Virus record (IMG/VR): IMGVR_UViG_2675903352_000005 | Reading direction: 5' to 3' (one strand) | DNA: 18,069 nt | DNA from: a virus | Lineage: Duplodnaviria; Heunggongvirae; Uroviricota; Caudoviricetes | Part shown: positions 1,657 through 15,022 of the stretch, one piece after another | How the letters are laid out: every line of letters begins with the position of its first letter | How positions within the stretch are numbered: the stretch's first letter is position 1 | Program-made: the position numbers and the translations under genes | Notes under the pieces: model-generated | What the model was told of the DNA's origin: nothing | What the model saw: only the letters and a program-made list of their open reading frames with translations | The model's database searches: none

Positions 1657-2709
1657 ATGGCTAATACTGTAAAAATATCCAGTTGTGAGTTAGTCAACGC
1701 TGATTGCCTGGAATTTATCCAGACCTTACCGGAAAACTCTGTCGATCTGATAGTCACAGACCCGCCATACTTTAAAGTGAAGCCCGAGAGCTGGGATAAC
1801 CAGTGGAAGGGGGACGATGATTACCTGAAATGGCTGGACCAGTGTCTGGCGCAGTTCTGGCGGGTACTGAAGCCCGCCGGAAGTCTTTACCTGTTCTGTG
1901 GTCATCGCCTGGCATCTGACACCGAAATTATGATGCGTGAACGCTTTAATGTGCTGAATCACATTATCTGGGCGAAGCCGTCAGGACGCTGGAACAGGTG
2001 CAACAAGGAAAGCCTGCGGGCGTATTTCCCGGCAACAGAGCGCATTCTGTTTGCCGAACATTATCAGGGGCCATATCGCGGCAAAAGTGACGGCTATGCG
2101 GCAAAAGAAAGTCAACTCAAACAGCACATAATGGCACCGCTGATTTCGTATTTCAGGGATGCTCGTGCCGAACTGGGTATAACGGCAAAACAAATTGCCG
2201 AAGCCACAGGTAAGAAAAATATGGTTTCCCACTAGTTTGGTGCCAGTCAGTGGCAGTTGCCGAATGAGGCTGACTATCGGAAGTTACAGGCACTGTTTTC
2301 CCGTATAGCGGCAGAGAAGTTTCAGGAACAACAACTGGAACAACCACACCACCAGCTGGTGGCATCTTATGATTCACTGAATCGCAAATATTCTGAATTG
2401 CTGGATGAGTTTAAATCTCTCCGGCGCTATTTCTCCGTATCAGTCTCCGTGCCTTATACCGATGTCTGGACGCATAAGCCCGTTCAGTTCTACCCGGGTA
2501 AACATCCGTGCGAGAAACCGGCGGATATGCTCCGGCAAATAATCAATGCCAGTAGTCGACCTGGTAATCTGGTCGCTGATTTCTTTATGGGATCCGGTTC
2601 CACAATAAAAGCAGCAATGGCGCTGGGGCGTCGGGCGTTAGGTGTTGAACTTGAGTCAGAGCGGTTTAATCAGACGGTGAAAGAGGTAAGTGAACTGGTG
2701 GGGAAATAA
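1657..2709 (+). pseudogene. DNA amino-methyltransferase (N6-adenine or N4-cytosine), split by an in-frame TAG at 2233-2235
   Basis: Two ORFs in the same frame (1657-2235 and 2257-2709) are separated only by one amber codon. The N-terminal part carries the catalytic motif DPPY (VTDPPYF); the C-terminal part carries the AdoMet-binding motif FxGxG (FFMGSGST). Both are needed in one polypeptide, so the intact gene would encode about 350 aa. Confidence 0.75.
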
Positions 2710-2716
2710 TTCTGGT

Positions 2717-2742
2717 GGCCACGTTGCGTGGCCTTTTTATTT
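2717..2742 (+). terminator. Rho-independent terminator-like hairpin between the methyltransferase and the holin
   Basis: Perfect 7-bp stem GGCCACG-(ttg)-CGTGGCC at 2717-2733, followed by TTTTTATTT. Confidence 0.5.
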
Positions 2743-2785
2743 CCAACACAGCACCCGCAAATATCGCGAGGTGAGAGATGACGAA

Positions 2786-3121
2786 ATGCCTCATAACCCA
2801 AATACCTGGCCGGACTGGCTGGAGTTGTTTCAGAGCTGGTGGCGTGGAGACACACCGCTGGGTGCAGTGATTATGTCGATCGTTATGGCTGGTTTGCGCA
2901 TCGCCTATTTTGGCGGTGGTGGTGGCTGGAAGCGAAAAACGCTCGAGATTTTGCTCTGTGGCGCTCTGACGCTGACCTTTGCATCCGCTCTTGAGTATGT
3001 CGGATGGCCTAAATCACTTTCTGTTGCCATTGGTGGCGGCGTGGGGCTGATCGGTGTCGATGCTATTCGTGGGGCTGCAATGCGAGTAATTGGTAACAAG
3101 TTTGGTGGCTCTAAGGAGTAA
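2786..3121 (+). CDS. Holin, three predicted transmembrane segments (111 aa)
   Basis: ATG 2786 follows GAGGTGAGAG. Three hydrophobic stretches (LGAVIMSIVMAGLRIAY, LEILLCGALTLTFASALEYVGW, LSVAIGGGVGLIGVDAI) and a charged C-terminus; it sits directly upstream of the endolysin. The longer track ORF from GTG 2690 would run through the terminator hairpin, so I reject that start. Confidence 0.8.
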   Translation: MPHNPNTWPDWLELFQSWWRGDTPLGAVIMSIVMAGLRIAYFGGGGGWKRKTLEILLCGALTLTFASALEYVGWPKSLSVAIGGGVGLIGVDAIRGAAMRVIGNKFGGSKE

Positions 3122-3124
3122 TTT

Positions 3125-3601
3125 ATGCAGGTACTAAATTCCCAGCGTAAAGCTTTCCTCGATATGTTGGCGTGGTCAGAAGGAACGGATAACGGGCGAC
3201 AGCCAACCCGCAATCACGGCTACGACGTTATTGTAGGTGGTGAGCTATTCACGGATTACTCCGATCATCCTCGCAAACTTGTCACGCTAAACCCGCAACT
3301 TAAATCAACCGCAGCTGGACGTTACCAGCTTCTTTCCCGTTGGTGGGATGCCTACCGCAAGCAGCTTGGCCTGAAAGACTTCTCTCCGAAAAGCCAGGAC
3401 GCTGTTGCACTGCAGCAGATTAAAGAGCGTGGCGCTTTACCAATGATTGATCGCGGTGATATTCGTCAGGCTATCGACCGTTGCAGCAATATCTGGGCTT
3501 CACTACCGGGCGCTGGTTATGGTCAGTTCGAGCATAAAGTTGGCAACCTGATTGCAAAATTCAAAGAAGCAGGCGGAACGGTCAGAGAGATTGAGGTATG
3601 A
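3125..3601 (+). CDS. R: Endolysin, lambda R-type lytic transglycosylase (158 aa)
   Basis: Near-identical over most of its length to lambda R as I recall it ([22 protein letters not shown]...[35 protein letters not shown]). Confidence 0.95.
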
Positions 3602-4035
3602 GCAGAGTCACCGCGATTATCTCCGCTCTGGTTATTTGTATCATCGCCTGCCTGTCATGGGCTGTTAATCATTACCGTGATAACGCCATTACCTATAAAG
3701 AACAGCGCGATAAAGCCACGTACATCATCGCTGACATGCAGAAGCGTCAACATGATGTAGCAGAACTCGATGCCAGATACACAAAGGAGCTTGCTGATGC
3801 TAACGCGACTATCGAAAGTCTCCGTGCTGATATTTCTGCTGGGCGTAAGCGCCTGCAAGTCGCCGCCACCTGTGCAAAGTCAACGACCGGAGCCAGCAGC
3901 ATGGGCGATGGAGAAAGTCCAAGACTTACAGCAGATGCTGAACTCAATTATTACCGTCTCCGAAGTGGAATCGACAGGATAACCGCGCAGGTTAACTATC
4001 TGCAGGAGTACATCAGGACGCAATGCCTGAATTAA
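3598..4035 (+). CDS. Rz: Rz inner-membrane spanin (145 aa)
   Basis: N-terminus [33 protein letters not shown] matches lambda Rz. Start overlaps the R stop (ATGA). Coiled-coil central region. Confidence 0.9.
3797..3982 (+). CDS. Rz1: Rz1 outer-membrane lipoprotein spanin, embedded in Rz in the +1 frame (61 aa)
   Basis: ORF lies entirely inside Rz. AAGGAG sits 8 nt upstream of ATG 3797. Signal peptide with lipobox (LLGVSAC) followed by a proline-rich mature part ([13 protein letters not shown]), as in lambda Rz1. The track start at 3770 is an alternative. Confidence 0.8.
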
Positions 4036-4076
4036 TTCCTCAGCATCAAAAACTAACTTAATTTGTTGGATAGTGA

Positions 4077-4388
4077 ATGAAAATTTATATTGCCGGACCA
4101 ATGACGGGATATGAGAATTTTAATCGTGACGCCTTTAATAAAGAGGCTGAGCGTTTGTCACGTCATGGTCATTCGGTCCTGAATCCAGCCACTTTACCCA
4201 ATGGCCTGACGCAATGTGAATACATGGATATTTGCTTTGCAATGCTTCGTTCTGCTGATGCTATTTTGATGCTTCCTGGCTGGAAAGCGTCAGCTGGAGC
4301 AACTGCTGAGTATTATTACGCATACAAGATGGAGATGCCGGTATTCACTACGCTGAATTACCCGCCAGCTTGTTCCTCTGTAGCATAA
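4077..4388 (+). CDS. Hypothetical protein (103 aa), nucleoside 2-deoxyribosyltransferase-like (DUF4406-type) N-terminus
   Basis: N-terminus MKIYIAGPMTG and the overall pattern resemble the small nucleoside 2-deoxyribosyltransferase-like family. Located just after the lysis cassette, where lambda carries bor. Family assignment is from memory only. Confidence 0.5.
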   Translation: MKIYIAGPMTGYENFNRDAFNKEAERLSRHGHSVLNPATLPNGLTQCEYMDICFAMLRSADAILMLPGWKASAGATAEYYYAYKMEMPVFTTLNYPPACSSVA

Positions 4389-4489
4389 AAATCTCTTTGT
4401 TTCTCGCGTGCGACCGTGGTCGCACGATATCGTTGTCTCTTGTGGTGATTTATTTGTTTGAGCCGGTTTACAACTAACAGGATATAAAT

Positions 4490-6016: not shown

Positions 6017-8116
6017 ATGGGTTTTTCATCAGCCCGAAATTTGGGAAGGGACATATCGGCAGGATTTTCCCCACCACGTCGCATGCCGATTTCGGAGGCT
6101 GTTAAAAAATTCATGCGTGTTCCCAAGGGGGCTGGTAACTCGGTGCCATGGGATCCTGAACTGACACCCTACATCATTGAGCCCATGAACTGCCTGGCAT
6201 CGCGTGAATACGATGCGGTGATTTTTGTTGGTCCTGCGCGAACAGGGAAGACCATTGGTCTGATCGATGGATGGATTGTCTATACCATCGTTTGCGATCC
6301 TTCGGACATGCTCGTTGTGCAGATGACCGAAGATAAGGCCCGCGAGCATTCTAAAAAGCGCCTCGACAGAACGTTCAGAAGCAGTGCGGCGGTAAAGAAA
6401 AGAATGAGTCCACGTCGTAACGACAATAATGTTCATGATAAGACGTTCAGGGATGGCTCGTTCCTTAAAATTGGTTGGCCCTCGGTCAACATTATGTCGT
6501 CGTCGGATTACCGGTTTGTCGCCTTAACCGATTACGACCGTTTTCCGGAGAATATCGACAGCGAGGGTGATGGTTTCTCCCTGGCCTCAAAACGTACCAC
6601 CACATTTATGTCCGCCGGGATGACTCTGGTGGAGAGCTCGCCGGGACGTGACATCTGCGACAGCAAATGGCGACGTAAGTCGCCTCATGAAGCGCCACCG
6701 ACGACTGGTATTCTTTCCCTTTACAATCGTGGTGACCGCCGCCGCTGGTACTGGCCATGTCCGCACTGCGGTGAATATTTTCAGCCAGCCATGGATGCCA
6801 TGACCGGCTACCGTAATGAACCGGATCCCTTTAAAGCCAGTGAGGCGGCGTATCTACTTTGCCCGCACTGCAGCGGCATTATCACTGCGGAGAAAAAGCG
6901 TGAGCTCAATAGTGCAGGAGTCTGGTTGCGTGAAGGTCAGGTCATTGATCGTAACGGCAACGTTTCCGGTGAACCGCGCCGCTCCCGTATCGCCAGTTTC
7001 TGGATGGAAGGGCCAGCTGCTGCGTATCAGACCTGGGCGCAACTGGTTTACAAATTACTGACTGCAGAACAGGAATACGAGACAACCGGAAGTGAAGAAA
7101 CACTCAAGACGGTTATCAATACCGACTGGGGATTACCTTATCTTCCTCGTGCCAGCATGGAGCAACGAAAAAGTGAATTGCTTGAGCAGCGGGCAGAGCC
7201 AGTTCCTTCCCGCAGTGTGCCGGATGGCGTTAATTTCCTTGTGGCGACAGTGGATGTGCAGGCGGGACGTCATCGCCGTTTTGTGGTTCAGGTAACGGGC
7301 TATGGCAGCCGTGGCGAACGCTGGATTATTGATCGTTACAACATCACGCAGTCATTGCGCGGTGACAGCGACGGGGAGAGCCAGCGAATTGATCCGGCCA
7401 GCTATCCGGAAGACTGGGATGTCCTGCTGACGGATGTTTTTCATAAAAGCTGGCCGCTGGCCTCCGATCCTTCTCAACAAATGCGACTGATGGCAATGGC
7501 GGTGGACTCCGGCGGTGAAGACGGGGTCACTGATAATGCCTATAAATTCTGGCGTCGTTGCCGTCGTGATGGCCTTGGTAAACGTATTTACCTGTTTAAG
7601 GGCGACAGCATCCGGCGCGCAAAACTGATCAGCCGTACATTCCCTGATAACACCGGACGAACGGGCCGACGGGCGCAGGCCGCAGGTGATGTGCCGCTCT
7701 GGCTTCTTCAGACGGATGCCCTGAAAGACCGGGTGAATAACGCGTTATGGCGTGACTCGCCAGGTCCCGGCTATGTGCATTTCCCTGACTGGCTGGGGAG
7801 CTGGTTTTACGACGAACTGACGTATGAAGAGCGGAGCAGTGACGGGAAATGGAGTAAACCGGGTCGCGGTGCCAACGAAGCTTTTGACCTGATGGTGTAT
7901 GCCGAGGCTCTGGTCATTCTGCATGGATACGAAAAGATCCGCTGGCCGGATGCACCGGAGTGGGCGAGCCGGGAAACCTGGCTGGAGTGTGTCCCGGACA
8001 GTACCGAACCGTCACCCTCACCGGAACCGGTATCCACGCCTGTTAAAAAACAAAAACGGAAGAAAACAGTAACTGACGATGTTAACCCCTGGCTGACTTC
8101 CGGAGGATGGTTATGA
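6017..8116 (+). CDS. Terminase large subunit, lambda gpA family (699 aa)
   Basis: AGGAGG precedes the ATG. Walker A-like GPARTGKT, paired CPHCG/CPHCS motifs as in lambda gpA, and a C-terminal nuclease-like region. Size and position fit. Confidence 0.9.
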   Translation: MGFSSARNLGRDISAGFSPPRRMPISEAVKKFMRVPKGAGNSVPWDPELTPYIIEPMNCLASREYDAVIFVGPARTGKTIGLIDGWIVYTIVCDPSDMLVVQMTEDKAREHSKKRLDRTFRSSAAVKKRMSPRRNDNNVHDKTFRDGSFLKIGWPSVNIMSSSDYRFVALTDYDRFPENIDSEGDGFSLASKRTTTFMSAGMTLVESSPGRDICDSKWRRKSPHEAPPTTGILSLYNRGDRRRWYWPCPHCGEYFQPAMDAMTGYRNEPDPFKASEAAYLLCPHCSGIITAEKKRELNSAGVWLREGQVIDRNGNVSGEPRRSRIASFWMEGPAAAYQTWAQLVYKLLTAEQEYETTGSEETLKTVINTDWGLPYLPRASMEQRKSELLEQRAEPVPSRSVPDGVNFLVATVDVQAGRHRRFVVQVTGYGSRGERWIIDRYNITQSLRGDSDGESQRIDPASYPEDWDVLLTDVFHKSWPLASDPSQQMRLMAMAVDSGGEDGVTDNAYKFWRRCRRDGLGKRIYLFKGDSIRRAKLISRTFPDNTGRTGRRAQAAGDVPLWLLQTDALKDRVNNALWRDSPGPGYVHFPDWLGSWFYDELTYEERSSDGKWSKPGRGANEAFDLMVYAEALVILHGYEKIRWPDAPEWASRETWLECVPDSTEPSPSPEPVSTPVKKQKRKKTVTDDVNPWLTSGGWL

Positions 8117-8325
8117 ATCAGAATGATATTGAAGCCATGATTCAGCGTTATACGGAAGCTGAAATGGCGGTGCTGGACGGAAAATCCGTCACTTTTAATG
8201 GTCAGCAGATGACCATGGAAAACTTATCTGAGATCCGGCAGGGGCGGCAGGAGTGGGAGCGCCGCCTTGCGGCTCTGATTACACGACGACGGGGGCATCC
8301 CGGGTACCGGCTGGCGAGGTTCTGA
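8113..8325 (+). CDS. W: Head-tail joining protein, gpW-like (70 aa)
   Basis: ATG 8113 overlaps the terminase stop (ATGA), with GGAGG 6 nt upstream. The C-terminal RRRGHPGYRLARF resembles the lambda W C-terminus (QRRRGPAGFYV). Lies between terminase and portal, as in lambda. Confidence 0.6.
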   Translation: MNQNDIEAMIQRYTEAEMAVLDGKSVTFNGQQMTMENLSEIRQGRQEWERRLAALITRRRGHPGYRLARF

Positions 8326-9833
8326 TGGCAATTCTTGATGATGTGATTGGCGTTTTTTCACCAGGATGGAAAGCGGCAAGGCTGCGTTCCCGTGCGGTGA
8401 TCCAGGCTTATGAGGCCGTAAAAACGACGCGGACACACAAAGCCCGACGGGAGAACCGAACTGCCGACCAGTTAAGCCAGTACGGGGCCGTGTCGTTACG
8501 TGAGCAGGCCCGTTACCTTGATAACAACCACGATCTGGTCATTGGTGTATTTGACAAGCTGGAAGAACGGGTGGTGGGGAAAAACGGGATTATTGTCGAG
8601 CCACATCCGGTATTACGCAATGGGGCCATTGCCCGTGATCTGGCAGCGGAGATACGCACCCGATGGAGTGAATGGTCTGTCAGTCCGGAAGTCACCGGGC
8701 AGTTTACCCGTCCGATGCTGGAACGTCTGATGCTGCGTACCTGGCTGCGCGATGGTGAGGTGTTTGCCCAGATGGTTTCCGGGCGCATAAACAGCCTGAC
8801 GCCTTCTGCCGGTGTTCATTTCTGGCTGGAGGCGCTCGAGCCGGACTTTATTCCCATGACCAGTGATGAGAGCAACAGGCTGAATCAGGGCGTGTTTGTT
8901 GATGACTGGGGGCGTCCCGAAAAATATCTGGTGTATAAAAGCCGTCCCGTATCCGGACGGCAGATGGAAACCAAAGAAGTGGATGCAGAGCGAATGCTGC
9001 ATCTTAAATTTGTTCGCCGTCTGCACCAGATGCGCGGGACGTCTTTATTGTCCGGTGTGCTGATCCGCCTCAGCGCCCTGAAAGAGTATGAAGATTCTGA
9101 GCTGACTGCAGCAAGGATCGCCGCTGCTCTGGGGATGTACATCCGGAAAGGCGACGGACAGAGCTATGAAACGGATGGTAATGACAGCAAGGAGAATGAA
9201 CGCGAGCTTACCATTCAGCCAGGCATTATTTACGACGATCTGAAACCCGGCGAAGAAATCGGAATGGTGAAGTCGGATCGTCCCAATCCTAACCTTGAAA
9301 CTTTTCGTAATGGTCAGTTGCGTGCCGTGGCGGCGGGCAGTCGTCTGAGTTTTTCCAGTACGGCACGCAACTATAACGGCACTTACAGCGCCCAGCGTCA
9401 GGAACTGGTTGAGTCTACTGATGGCTACCTGATCCTGCAGGACTGGTTTATTGGTGCCGTCACCCGCCCGATGTATCGTGCCTGGCTGAAACAGGCTGTG
9501 GCATCCGGTGTTATCAGGCTACCCCGCGATCTTGACCGTTCTTCACTGTATACCGCGGTGTATTCCGGACCAGTGATGCCGTGGATTGACCCTGTTAAGG
9601 AGGCTGAGGCCTGGAAAATCCAGATTCGTGGTGGAGCGGCGACAGAATCAGACTGGGTACGTGCTGGTGGTCGTAATCCGGATGATGTCAAACGTCGGCG
9701 CAAGGCCGAAATTGATGAAAACCGCAAGCTGGATCTGGTATTTGATACCGATCCGGCCAGTGATAAAGGAGGCAGCAGTGCCGCAACGAAACGACAGGAG
9801 CCGCAGCACACCGACGACCAGTCCGAAGAATAA
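8325..9833 (+). CDS. Portal protein (502 aa)
   Basis: ATG 8325 overlaps the W stop (TGATG); the track extension from 8253 lacks a plausible start context. Size and position between W and the protease/capsid gene are typical of lambda-family portals. Confidence 0.85.
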   Translation: MAILDDVIGVFSPGWKAARLRSRAVIQAYEAVKTTRTHKARRENRTADQLSQYGAVSLREQARYLDNNHDLVIGVFDKLEERVVGKNGIIVEPHPVLRNGAIARDLAAEIRTRWSEWSVSPEVTGQFTRPMLERLMLRTWLRDGEVFAQMVSGRINSLTPSAGVHFWLEALEPDFIPMTSDESNRLNQGVFVDDWGRPEKYLVYKSRPVSGRQMETKEVDAERMLHLKFVRRLHQMRGTSLLSGVLIRLSALKEYEDSELTAARIAAALGMYIRKGDGQSYETDGNDSKENERELTIQPGIIYDDLKPGEEIGMVKSDRPNPNLETFRNGQLRAVAAGSRLSFSSTARNYNGTYSAQRQELVESTDGYLILQDWFIGAVTRPMYRAWLKQAVASGVIRLPRDLDRSSLYTAVYSGPVMPWIDPVKEAEAWKIQIRGGAATESDWVRAGGRNPDDVKRRRKAEIDENRKLDLVFDTDPASDKGGSSAATKRQEPQHTDDQSEE

Positions 9834-9846
9834 TTCCTGGTTCAGG

Positions 9847-11805
9847 ATGCAGGCTGGTCACCAGAGTGACGCGGATATTTATATTTATGACGAGATTGGT
9901 TTCTGGGGTGTTACAGCGAAGCAGTTTATCAGTGATCTGAATGCACTGGGCGATATCACCCACATTAATCTTCATATTAATTCACCGGGTGGCGATGTCT
10001 TTGAAGGCATCGCCATTTTTAATGCACTGAAAACACATGGTGCGTCCATTACCGTTTATGTCGACGGTGTGGCGGCGTCAATGGCGTCGGTCATTGCGAT
10101 GGTGGGAAACCCGGTCATTATGCCGGAAAACACTTTCATGATGATTCATAAACCATTTGGCTTTACGGGCGGTGATGCGGAGGACATGCGCACCTATGCC
10201 GACCTGCTCGATAAAGTTGAGGCGGTTCTGTTACCCGCTTATGCACAGAAAACCGGGAAAACCACCGATGAAATTGCTGCCATGCTGGCGGATGAGACCT
10301 GGATGTCCGGTGCCGAATGTCTGGCACATGGATTTGCTGATCAGGTAACGCCAGCCGTTAAGGCAATGGCATGTATTCAGTCAAAACGTACAGAGGAATT
10401 TAAAAAGATGCCGGAATCCATTCGAAACATGATTACTCCGCCACGCAACAGTGCTCCACGCGTACAGGATGATGAACCTGCAGCCTCCCGGACGCCAGTG
10501 CAGGCAGCAGCACCCGTGGTGGATGAAAACAGTATCCGTGCGCAGGTACTGGCAGAGCAAAAAGCGCGTGTAAACGGTATTAATGATCTGTTTGCCATGT
10601 TTGGCGGGCGTTATCAGACGCTGCAGGCTCAGTGTCTTGCCGATCCTGAATGTTCGCTGGAGCAGGCCCGCGAAAAGCTGTTGAACGAGATGGGGCGCGA
10701 GTCCACGCCATCCAATAAAAATACCCCGGCTCATATTTATGCCGGTAACGGTAATTTTGTGGGGGACGGGATCCGCCAGGCGCTGATGGCGCGTGCCGGA
10801 TTTGAAAAAACCGAACGTGATAATGTCTACAACGGGATGACCCTGCGTGAATATGCCCGTATGTCACTGACTGAACGGGGTATTGGGGTTTCCAGTTATA
10901 ACCCGATGCAGATGGTCGGTGCGGCGTTCACACACAGTACGTCTGACTTCGGTAATATTCTGCTGGATGTTGCGAACAAAGCCATTCTGCAGGGCTGGGA
11001 AGATGCCCCTGAAACCTATGAACAGTGGACGCGGAAAGGTCAGTTGTCTGATTTTAAAATTGCCCATCGTGTGGGTATGGGGGGCTTCAGTGCTCTGCGT
11101 CAGGTGCGTGAAGGGGCGGAATATAAATACGTCACCACCGGAGATAAACAGGCCACTATTGCACTGGCGACCTATGGCGAGCTGTTCAGTATCACCCGTC
11201 AGGCCATTATCAATGATGATCTGAATATGCTGACCGATGTCCCGATGAAGCTGGGCCGTGCGGCGAAATCCACTATTGCCGATCTGGTTTATGCCATTCT
11301 GACGTCTAACCCGAAAATCTCCACAGATAATGTAAGTCTGTTCGATAAAGCGAAACATGCAAACGTACTGGAGAGCGCTGCAATGGACGTGGCATCGCTG
11401 GATAAAGCCCGCCAGTTGATGCGCGTTCAGAAAGAGGGGGAGCGTCATCTGAATATTCGTCCTGCGTTCGTACTGGTACCGACGGCGATGGAGTCTGTTG
11501 CTAACCAGGTCATTCGCTCCTCAAGTGTCAAGGGGGCTGACATTAACGCCGGTATTATTAACCCGGTGAAAGATTTTGCGACCGTTATTGCAGAGCCTCG
11601 TCTTGATGATAACAGCCAGACCACCTTCTACCTGGCTGCGTCAAAAGGCTCCGATACGATTGAAGTGGCTTATCTCAACGGTGTGGATACGCCATATATT
11701 GATCAGATGGAGGGCTTCAGTGTGGATGGCGTGACAACGAAAGTGCGTATTGACGCCGGTGTCGCGCCAGTTGATCACCGCGGTCTGGTGAAATGTACGG
11801 CGTAA
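9847..11805 (+). CDS. Prohead protease (ClpP/S14-like), scaffold-like linker and major capsid protein fused in one ORF (about 652 aa)
   Basis: The N-terminal domain has ClpP-like motifs (NSPGGDV, catalytic-Ser context GVAASMASV, His context MIHKP). A charged, Pro/Ala/Gln-rich linker is followed by a roughly 400-aa capsid-like domain. The start is uncertain: ATG 9847 has a weak ribosome-binding site, and in-frame ATGs lie upstream inside the portal gene (e.g. 9715). Confidence 0.8.
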   Translation: MQAGHQSDADIYIYDEIGFWGVTAKQFISDLNALGDITHINLHINSPGGDVFEGIAIFNALKTHGASITVYVDGVAASMASVIAMVGNPVIMPENTFMMIHKPFGFTGGDAEDMRTYADLLDKVEAVLLPAYAQKTGKTTDEIAAMLADETWMSGAECLAHGFADQVTPAVKAMACIQSKRTEEFKKMPESIRNMITPPRNSAPRVQDDEPAASRTPVQAAAPVVDENSIRAQVLAEQKARVNGINDLFAMFGGRYQTLQAQCLADPECSLEQAREKLLNEMGRESTPSNKNTPAHIYAGNGNFVGDGIRQALMARAGFEKTERDNVYNGMTLREYARMSLTERGIGVSSYNPMQMVGAAFTHSTSDFGNILLDVANKAILQGWEDAPETYEQWTRKGQLSDFKIAHRVGMGGFSALRQVREGAEYKYVTTGDKQATIALATYGELFSITRQAIINDDLNMLTDVPMKLGRAAKSTIADLVYAILTSNPKISTDNVSLFDKAKHANVLESAAMDVASLDKARQLMRVQKEGERHLNIRPAFVLVPTAMESVANQVIRSSSVKGADINAGIINPVKDFATVIAEPRLDDNSQTTFYLAASKGSDTIEVAYLNGVDTPYIDQMEGFSVDGVTTKVRIDAGVAPVDHRGLVKCTA

Positions 11806-11828
11806 ACGTCGCAGACAACAACTCTGAT

Positions 11829-11848
11829 GGCCCGTAAGGGCTTTTTTT
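11829..11848 (+). terminator. Weak terminator or attenuator hairpin after the capsid gene
   Basis: Short stem GCCC-(gtaa)-GGGC followed by seven T. A second 7-bp hairpin CAGCCCC-(tgaac)-GGGGCTG at 11860-11878 abuts the ribosome-binding site of the next gene. Confidence 0.4.
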
Positions 11849-11891
11849 GTACCTGAAATCAGCCCCTGAACGGGGCTGTGCGGAGACAGTT

Positions 11892-12215
11892 ATGGCAAAG
11901 AATTTTGTAGAAGAAGGAAAAACGGTGGCGATTGTTGCCAGTGCAGCCATCAGCAGCGGAGATCTGGTGCAGGTGGGTGATGTTTTTGCGGTGGCGCTGA
12001 CCGATATTCCACAGGGTGAAACAGGCGACGGCATGACCGAAGGTGTGTTTATGCTGCCTAAGCTGAAAACGGATGATATGAAAACGGGTAAGAAGGTTTA
12101 TCTGAAGTCTGGAAAAGTTCAGCTGACTAACAGCGGCTCTGATCCGCTGGTCGGGGTTGTCTGGGCAGATGCCGGAACCAGTGCAGAAGAAGTGCCGGTA
12201 AAACTCAATGTCTGA
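11892..12215 (+). CDS. Small head-associated protein (107 aa), possible decoration / DUF2190-like protein
   Basis: GGAG sits 7 nt upstream of ATG 11892; the track start at 11847 is an unsupported extension. Lies directly after the capsid gene, with a Gly/Val-rich beta-type composition. Function inferred from position only. Confidence 0.55.
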   Translation: MAKNFVEEGKTVAIVASAAISSGDLVQVGDVFAVALTDIPQGETGDGMTEGVFMLPKLKTDDMKTGKKVYLKSGKVQLTNSGSDPLVGVVWADAGTSAEEVPVKLNV

Positions 12216-12483
12216 TCCCTTTTCCCGGCTGACAGCGCGTATGGATGCGATCACGGTCAGAAAGATGGGAAAGACAGCCTCGATTAATGATGTCGATATG
12301 ACTGTGATCCCGGGAGAAACACTGGCAGAACTGAATGCTCTGTCCGGACCTGCGGTCTCTCTGGTGGTGTTTTCTTCGGGATACCGCCCACGGCGCGGGG
12401 ATCGCGTTGTTTATGACGGACAACAATGGACGGTCACACGGCATGAACGCTTTAACGGTAAGCCAATGATCTTTATTGAGTAA
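12208..12483 (+). CDS. Head-tail connector / head completion protein (91 aa)
   Basis: ATG overlaps the preceding stop (ATGTCTGA). Size and position between head and tail genes fit small adaptor proteins. Function is inferred from synteny. Confidence 0.55.
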   Translation: MSDPFSRLTARMDAITVRKMGKTASINDVDMTVIPGETLAELNALSGPAVSLVVFSSGYRPRRGDRVVYDGQQWTVTRHERFNGKPMIFIE

Positions 12484-14237: not shown

Positions 14238-14257
14238 CAGGACGATACTCATCATTT

Positions 14258-14281
14258 GCCCCGGTTATCCGGGGCTTTTTT
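14258..14281 (+). terminator. Rho-independent terminator-like hairpin after V
   Basis: 7-bp stem GCCCCGG-(ttat)-CCGGGGC followed by six T, just upstream of the G ribosome-binding site. Probably partial termination that lowers expression of downstream tail genes. Confidence 0.5.
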
Positions 14282-14294
14282 GCAGGTGGAGAAC

Positions 14295-14684
14295 ATGATG
14301 TTTCTGAAACAGGGCACGTTTAATTATGAAAAGCAGTCCGTGGTGCTCAGTGAGCTGTCCGGGCTGCAGAGAATTGAATATCTGGCGTTTGTTCAGCAGC
14401 GAACGGCAAAGTTTGATGCCGAAGAGGGAGAACTGCCGGAGGCTGAACGACAGATTGCTTTTCTGCGGATGGGGATGGATATCAATGCCTGGCTGGTTTC
14501 CCGCTCACTGTGGAATGCGGAACAGTCTCAGGATGTTGAGACGCTTTGCGCATCCGTTATTACAACATGGTCGTATGATGCCCTGGGAGCGGGGGCGGAG
14601 ATGGTTCTGTCGCTGAGCGGTATGGGTGCCATTGAGAATGCCGGGGATCTGGAGCATGAGGTGCTGACGCCGGAAAAGTCCTGA
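14295..14684 (+). CDS. G: Tail assembly chaperone G (129 aa)
   Basis: GGTGGAG precedes ATG 14295. The N-terminus MFLKQGTFNYEKQSVVLSELSGLQRIEYLAF matches lambda G (MFLK...VTLSELSALQRIEHLA). Confidence 0.85.
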   Translation: MMFLKQGTFNYEKQSVVLSELSGLQRIEYLAFVQQRTAKFDAEEGELPEAERQIAFLRMGMDINAWLVSRSLWNAEQSQDVETLCASVITTWSYDALGAGAEMVLSLSGMGAIENAGDLEHEVLTPEKS

Positions 14685-15022
14685 CGCGGGAAATGCAGTT
14701 TGTCATGCGGCTTGCCCGGGAGTTCCGGCGGGCAGACTGGCGGCGGATGCTGTCGGAAATGTCGGCCACTGAGCTTGGTGAGTGGGGCGATTATTTCCGG
14801 ATGCAGAGCTTCAGTGATGTGTGGATGGATGCGCAGTTTGCCTCGCTGAAGGCATTGATCGTGAGAATGGTGTCCGGCAGCAGTGATGCTGCGGTGGCTG
14901 ATTTCAGCCTTTTACCGGAAGAGAACGGGATACCGGAGCGAACGGACGAAGAACTGATGCATCTTGGGGAAGGTATTTCCGGAGGTGTGCGTTATGGACC
15001 AGATAGCCAACCTGGTCATTGA
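14295..15022 (+). CDS. T: Tail assembly chaperone G-T fusion, made by a programmed -1 ribosomal frameshift near 14672-14678
   Basis: The -1 frame is open from 14636 to 15022 and encodes a lambda T-like sequence (LAREF.R.DWR.ML..MS.TE...W..YF...SF.D...D..F..L............D.A..DFSLL.......E.TDEE.M....G...GVRYGP). The only slip-prone heptamer in the overlap is G_GAA_AAG (14672-14678), one nucleotide away from lambda's G_GGA_AAG. Confidence 0.7.

Follow-up and report, generated by a model that had tools for sequence, protein, structure and literature searches.

A lambdoid gene for a ClpP-like prohead protease/major capsid protein fusion that most likely starts within the portal gene

In phage lambda the protease is SppA-type (S49), the scaffold gene is nested, and the capsid protein has its own gene and belongs to another sequence family; the ratio of protease to scaffold is set by nested translation of C and Nu3. 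In HK97, an N-terminal helical delta domain is cut off the capsid protein inside the prohead by a phage protease, which has its own gene, belongs to a protease family other than ClpP and enters the prohead sub-stoichiometrically. ClpP itself normally acts as heptameric rings. The joining of protease, scaffold and capsid in one polypeptide is also known already, as a named, curated and very common head family of lambdoid phages and prophages, described by the protein family model NF045540 ('ClpP-like prohead protease/major capsid protein fusion protein'). Proteins uniting protease, scaffold and capsid have been reported for the actinobacteriophage clusters AU, AM, BI, DJ and CC (bioRxiv 10.1101/2020.01.10.891226), and an actinobacteriophage capsid/protease/scaffold fusion is also described in PMC6606914. 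These belong to different hosts and lineages from the gene studied here, which gave only weak tblastn matches to Arthrobacter phage capsid genes. In the searchable full-text literature, no experimental work on processing in the NF045540 family came up, whether virion mass spectrometry, N-terminal sequencing or a structure; mentions of the family there are at the annotation level, alongside the actinobacteriophage 'capsid and protease fusion' descriptions.

The window analyzed here is a stretch of 18,069 nucleotides from a tailed virus (IMG/VR record IMGVR_UViG_2675903352_000005). One plus-strand frame is open from 9586 to a TAA at 11803-11805, which amounts to 739 codons with no internal stop, and from the ATG at 9847 it encodes 652 amino acids. 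An earlier note made from the sequence had read this frame as a ClpP-like serine protease, a low-complexity linker and a capsid-sized domain in a single uninterrupted ORF, and the frame is indeed intact. The alignment to related prophage fusion genes suggested there was carried out, and the protein follows NF045540 from end to end: the 652-amino-acid form scores 985.2 bits against a cut-off of 475 and covers profile positions 2-651 of 652. It also exceeds the cut-off of NF045542 'head maturation protease, ClpP-related' (215.8 bits, cut-off 120), and the PHROG 133 profile aligns to residues 15-675 when the longer, 675-amino-acid form discussed below is used. All testable defining features of NF045540 were found in the protein, which is a member of that family.

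The same gene is found in isolated coliphages and in a large share of its hosts. DNA identity is 99.1-99.7% to the coliphages mEp460, cdtI, Ayreon, phi458, HannyBb and Tritos, and about 77% to several Stx2-converting phages. Of 5426 complete E. coli genomes, 2017 have matches over at least 80% of the gene, and a genome may have as many as six copies, so that a head module of the fusion type is present in about 37% of them; PGAP assigns the NF045540 name in all 15 of the best-matching E. coli genomes listed. In mEp460, cdtI, Ayreon and Tritos and in many E. coli, Shigella and Salmonella prophages, the gene, its place after the portal gene and the cement protein gene that follows it are the same as in the window and nothing of substance differs. 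Among 1.84 billion representative proteins searched, well over 100 clusters (at 50% identity) have full-length alignments to the fusion protein at 35-60% identity. The fusion is thus old, stable and widespread rather than an accident of this copy. The earlier note had set the arrangement against the separate or nested genes of lambda; as a named and very widespread family, it is not unusual.

A sister family, NF045541 (PHROG 4523), is represented by gp8 of Stenotrophomonas phage S1 and by Pseudomonas phage LPPA33. Its members are of the same size (660-662 amino acids), overlap the end of the portal gene and are followed by the same decoration gene, and their scaffold-like and capsid parts are homologous to those of the window's protein. 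Their N-terminal domain, in contrast, is not ClpP-like and has no CLP_protease match. The fusion protein scores 400 bits with NF045541, for which the cut-off is 525, and aligns only over residues 197-649 of the 652-amino-acid form; it is not a member of that family.

The surroundings of the fusion gene are those of a standard lambdoid late operon (Table 1). The gene lies in the head cluster directly after the portal gene, as it does in mEp213 and in Pseudomonas phage CF145a, and the order continues from terminase, small gene, portal and fusion to the cement protein and to Z-, U-, V-, G-, T- and H-like tail genes. The portal protein has a Phage_portal_2 match in Pfam with an E-value of 6e-82 and scores 457 bits with TIGR01539, and PGAP calls the portal at 7553-9061 of a near-identical locus (L001). 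The counterpart of the cement gene in Stenotrophomonas phage S1 is annotated as 'head decoration'. A rho-independent terminator is annotated in mEp213 at the position equivalent to the hairpin that follows the fusion gene, GGCCCGTAAGGGC with its run of seven T. In the region of the tail chaperone (G/T) at 14256-15022, the lambda GGGAAAG heptamer had no match.

Table 1. Features of the fusion gene and its neighborhood in the window (residues are numbered in the 675-amino-acid form).
Feature	Position	Strand	Description	Basis
Large terminase gene, gpA-type	6017-8116		upstream of portal	
Small W-like gene	8107-8325		between terminase and portal	
Lambda-family portal gene	8325..9833	+	502 aa from ATG 8325	Phage_portal_2, TIGR01539, PGAP
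Shine-Dalgarno AAGGAGG	9766..9772	+	5 nt upstream of GTG 9778	read from sequence
Fusion gene (most likely start)	9778..11805	+	675 codons + stop, 73.5 kDa	NF045540, PHROG 133, PGAP 675-aa form
N-terminal basic extension	9778..9843	+	residues 1-22, pI about 12, predicted disordered, ends Trp21-Phe22	
ClpP-fold serine protease domain	9844..10350	+	residues 23-191	Pfam, NF045542, Foldseek
Ser101	10078-10080		catalytic	kept in 121/122 relatives
His124	10147-10149		catalytic	kept in 122/122 relatives
Asp188	10339-10341		triad residue	kept in 88/122 relatives
Tether	10351..10524	+	residues 192-249; two short helices, then disordered Pro/Ala-rich 222-247	
Three-helix domain	10525..10701	+	residues 250-308	AlphaFold2, conservation
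Gly-rich variable linker	10702..10755	+	residues 309-326	pLDDT 56-69, conservation profile
HK97-fold major capsid domain	10756..11802	+	residues 327-675, about 38 kDa	
Terminator-like hairpin	11826..11848	+	directly after fusion gene stop	
Cement/decoration protein gene	11892..12215	+	107 aa	Pfam Phage_cement_2 E 9e-21

Database versions of this gene differ in length, with 652 amino acids in phage records (ATG start), 675 in PGAP (GTG start) and 707 in some older records. The ATG at 9847, which is codon 24 of the 675-amino-acid form and lies 13 nt past the portal stop, has no usable Shine-Dalgarno sequence; it is preceded by ttcctggttcaggATG. Of the in-frame start codons further upstream, GTG 9778 alone has a strong ribosome-binding site. 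Exactly the same combination, AAGGAGG with 5 nt to a GTG, is present in mEp213 (L002; 74% protein identity), and Pseudomonas phage CF145a (56% identity) has GGAGG with 5 nt to an ATG, likewise within its portal gene.

The alignment of 121 diverse full-length relatives is decisive here. It contains a conserved motif near the N-terminus, Trp-Tyr/Phe-x-Ile/Met-Lys/Arg-Ala, with Trp at position 21 in 54 of the 73 relatives that have a residue there and Tyr or Phe at position 22 in 62 of 83. At the position of Met24, 53 relatives have Ile and 15 have Met, and residues 23-26 form a beta-strand of the protease domain in the AlphaFold2 model. The codons of Trp21 and Phe22 (9838-9843) lie between the portal stop (9831-9833) and ATG 9847. 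Portal coding cannot explain their conservation, because they follow the portal stop, and with a conserved motif located before ATG 9847 translation must begin upstream of 9838. ATG 9847 is thus probably not the start codon, although reinitiation there alongside GTG 9778 could occur. GTG 9778 is most likely the best start, judged from sequence and comparison, and would give a protein of 675 amino acids and 73.5 kDa whose gene shares its first 56 nt, in a different frame, with the end of the portal gene. The comparative evidence resolves the 652/675/707 inconsistency in favor of 675 amino acids. The suggestion in the earlier note that the start may lie inside the portal gene is thereby strengthened, by the Shine-Dalgarno sequence, by the motif and by the upstream extension of PGAP and PHROG 133, while the left boundary of 9847 that the note had used gives way to the more likely GTG.

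An AlphaFold2 model of the whole protein, built with 70 diverse relatives in the alignment (mean pLDDT 85), has three folded parts connected by disordered linkers, and the structure-based domain boundaries proposed as a check could be drawn from it: protease 23-191, helical domain 250-308 and capsid 327-675. Residues 1-18 and 222-247 have pLDDT values below 50. The helices of the tether carry a conserved Phe208-x3-Pro212, with Pro212 present in 117 of 122 relatives, and the tether also contains an in-frame ATG at 10408 (Met211). The domain at 250-308, which precedes the HK97 fold, is made of helices 250-273, 280-288 and 294-308 with pLDDT values of 86-95; Arg264 is invariant in the alignment of relatives, and NF045541, the sister family, has this region too. 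These residues are likely a scaffolding domain resembling delta. The linker that follows (309-326) is Gly-rich and variable after the nearly invariant Pro311, and we predict the maturation cleavage zone to lie in it. The 'low-complexity linker' of the earlier note is therefore correct only in part: it describes the disordered, Pro/Ala-rich residues 222-247 well, whereas residues 250-308 are a conserved three-helix domain.

Identification of the two flanking domains held up, with matches far beyond chance. Pfam places CLP_protease at residues 23-168 of the 652-amino-acid form (E-value 4e-36), and Foldseek matches the N-terminal part to ClpP structures with E-values of about 1e-13 and TM scores to target of 0.75-0.84. 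Since ClpP matches dominate the Foldseek list of the whole protein, the capsid part was given a model (pLDDT 85.6, pTM 0.80) and a Foldseek search of its own. This C-terminal model matched HK97-fold capsids and encapsulins with probability 1.00 and E-values from 5e-9 over alignments of about 280-320 columns; targets include HK97, T5, D3 and the Haloferax virus HFTV1. Identity to these solved structures is 9-14% (12% for HK97). In Pfam, Phage_capsid_4 matches at residues 352-649 of the 652-amino-acid form with an E-value of 7e-55, and Mu-like_gpT matches more weakly (4e-8). A sequence search of solved structures found no close homolog of the capsid part, with only weak matches to Mu GpT-type capsids (E-value 2e-4).

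In its predicted mode of action the protein resembles HK97 gp4 plus gp5 and lambda C/Nu3/E, yet it differs from both. As with HK97 gp4 and gp5, the capsid protein has the HK97 fold and there is no separate scaffolding gene, and the helical domain in front of the capsid domain may serve in assembly and be removed inside the prohead; the difference is that every capsid subunit here has a ClpP-type protease joined to it covalently, as part of the same ORF. The likeness to lambda gpC, gpNu3, gpE and gpD is one of position, since the gene order is the same from the gpA-type terminase to the Z-U-V-G-T-H tail genes, whereas protease and capsid are here in one ORF. The SppA domain model scores only 22.3 against a cut-off of 155, and with Pfam the lambda capsid family (gpE) has no match.

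Could the long ORF itself be an artefact or a product of decay, in which an error or mutation joined separate protease and capsid genes? Databases do hold rare ORFs of 1080-1159 amino acids in which the portal is fused as well, and one frameshift-split copy, but these merged and split forms are singletons, independent indels with junctions at differing places. The same unbroken ORF is present in plaque-forming phages at 99.1-99.7% identity, in the 2017 complete E. coli genomes and in diverged clusters from other hosts, which number more than 100, and conserved motifs and a domain predicted with confidence lie in the linker region. We give this explanation next to no chance, and the comparative data effectively refute it. 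A programmed frameshift from portal into fusion was also considered and was rejected, as the merged ORFs of 1080-1159 amino acids have their junctions at different positions. Two unfused relatives were noted. One of them (P0166) lies in a degraded prophage in which the linker residues can still be read in another frame; it is not evidence for separate genes because a frameshift splits an ancestral fusion. The other (P0230) is on a 1.5-kb contig without context. Another possibility is that the N-terminal domain is a cellular-type ClpP serving host proteolysis, or an inactive fold retained as scaffold mass. The fold is clearly that of ClpP, its identity to cellular ClpP structures is 23-30%, and Asp188 is not universal. 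Yet the models of cellular ClpP stay far below their cut-offs (TIGR00493 59.7 against 308.6, NF001368 79.6 against 249) while the phage-specific NF045542 passes with 216 against 120, the invariant catalytic Ser and His speak against an inactive fold, and the domain is covalently joined to a capsid protein within a head-gene cluster. We regard both versions of this idea as highly improbable.

It is also conceivable, if unlikely, that the ORF yields two products, with an extra start at ATG 10408 giving a scaffold-capsid protein of about 51 kDa that lacks the protease. Only a fraction of the shell subunits would then bear the protease, as in the C/Nu3 arrangement of lambda. GAGGAA and an A-rich spacer stand before this ATG. 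Met211 and GAGGAA are both kept in enterobacterial relatives, mEp213 among them, a relative of 52% identity shares the Met, and in a degraded prophage with a frameshift-split fusion the gene caller begins the second part exactly at Met211. Against this, GAGGAA is weak as a Shine-Dalgarno sequence, and its distance to the ATG is 11 nt. The same six letters encode a conserved Glu-Glu, so that their conservation requires no role in ribosome binding, and most members of the wider family have Ala, Val or Ile at position 211.

We consider it very likely that the gene is a lambdoid ClpP-like protease/capsid fusion that starts at GTG 9778 and encodes a 73.5-kDa polyprotein which would process itself in the procapsid. 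Its intact reading frame, three domains, conserved catalytic residues, family membership and start position come directly from the analyses above. The order in which the head assembles, whether and where the protein cleaves itself, and what the cement protein does are inferred from the analogy with HK97 and lambda. Given the invariance of the catalytic Ser and His, delivery of protease and scaffold in cis followed by autoproteolytic removal would be the natural reading, and it is also the one implied by the curated family name. Translation would begin at GTG 9778, within the end of the portal gene, and produce the polyprotein. The HK97-fold C-terminal domains would form the shell of the procapsid on the portal, and with every subunit a scaffold-like helical domain and a tethered ClpP-like protease would enter the interior. 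Once enclosed and concentrated, the proteases (Ser101/His124) would cleave the linkers and degrade the N-terminal part of about 34 kDa, leaving a capsid protein of about 38-40 kDa whose N-terminus would lie around residues 309-327. The head would then package DNA and expand, and the cement protein would bind the expanded shell. Against this reading, Asp188 of the triad is retained in only 88 of the 122 relatives, and the protease domains would be tethered to hexamers and pentamers, although ClpP normally acts in rings of seven.

The internal cargo of such a head would be about 14 MDa if, as we assume for the copy number, a T=7 head contains about 415 subunits. If every subunit does bring a protease of its own, activation could follow neither the pattern of free heptameric ClpP nor that of the sub-stoichiometric, separately targeted HK97 and lambda proteases; either rings would form across a symmetry mismatch, or the nested start at ATG 10408 would tune the ratio. 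We hold this idea to be speculative and rather doubtful. If it were true, tethered rings spanning the mismatch between hexamers or pentamers and heptameric protease would be helped by the tether of about 58 residues, or enterobacterial members would tune the ratio by way of the nested start.

As a discovery the locus is of small value, since its architecture has a curated model of exactly the same name, and what is added to the known family is limited to a better-supported start codon and a finer domain map. The maturation mechanism of this very common type of E. coli prophage head, on the other hand, may hold something new.

In a mechanical list of open reading frames the portal frame begins at GTG 8253. 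According to PGAP and the family models, the portal gene begins at ATG 8325, where it adjoins the end of the 72-aa gene upstream (8107-8325). Open reading frames of 1080-1159 aa, in which portal, ClpP and capsid domains are joined, were rare in public databases (database proteins P0006-P0017, P0043 and P0070). Their junction sites differ from one another within the overlap region (window 9586-9833). For this reason the merged frames are better seen as the outcome of separate indels or of sequencing errors than of a programmed frameshift.

Within the fusion gene, an in-frame ATG encodes Met211 of the 675-aa protein. This codon is kept in enterobacterial relatives and in phage mEp213, but not in the wider family. 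It is a weak candidate for a nested start similar to that of lambda Nu3. A frameshift divides the fusion into two genes in a degraded prophage (GCA_000755365.1, BBMQ01000056.1), which is without a recognizable portal gene upstream. The first encodes a ClpP-like protein of 201 aa and the second a scaffold-capsid protein of 443 aa, with the start of the second called at the counterpart of Met211.

Positions of features in the window and in comparison loci
Feature	Sequence	Position	Remarks
In-frame ATG (Met211)	window	10408-10410	just past protease domain; GAGGAA and A-rich spacer upstream
Hairpin 1	window	11826-11848	between fusion and cement-protein genes
Hairpin 2	window	11860-11878	between fusion and cement-protein genes
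Small gene	window	12208-12483	next after cement-protein gene; counterpart in near-identical E. coli locus
G- and T-like tail assembly chaperone genes	window	14256-15022	adjacent
Split fusion	L007, degraded prophage	2411-4386	
NF045541 member	L004, Stenotrophomonas phage S1 gp8	2502-4484	
NF045541 member	L005, Pseudomonas phage LPPA33	2407-4395	

Hairpin 1 is followed by a run of seven T and looks like an intrinsic terminator; a rho-independent terminator is annotated at the equivalent place in mEp213. Further downstream, the E. coli counterpart of the small gene carries the PGAP product name "DNA breaking-rejoining protein". Given the gene's place in the head-tail joining region, that name was probably inherited and is misleading. 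The G and T genes of lambda are likewise adjacent to each other. The lambda slippery heptamer GGGAAAG, searched for in the window's G- and T-like genes, is absent at their junction, and no frameshift site was found.

The NCBIfam sister family NF045541, "prohead protease/major capsid protein fusion protein", has its scaffold and capsid parts and its size in common with the window's fusion. No Pfam match was found for the N-terminal ~200 residues of S1 gp8 and LPPA33, and the only match of this region was a weak one to a PHROG head-maturation-protease family. NF045541 appears to represent the same capsid module fused to a different protease.
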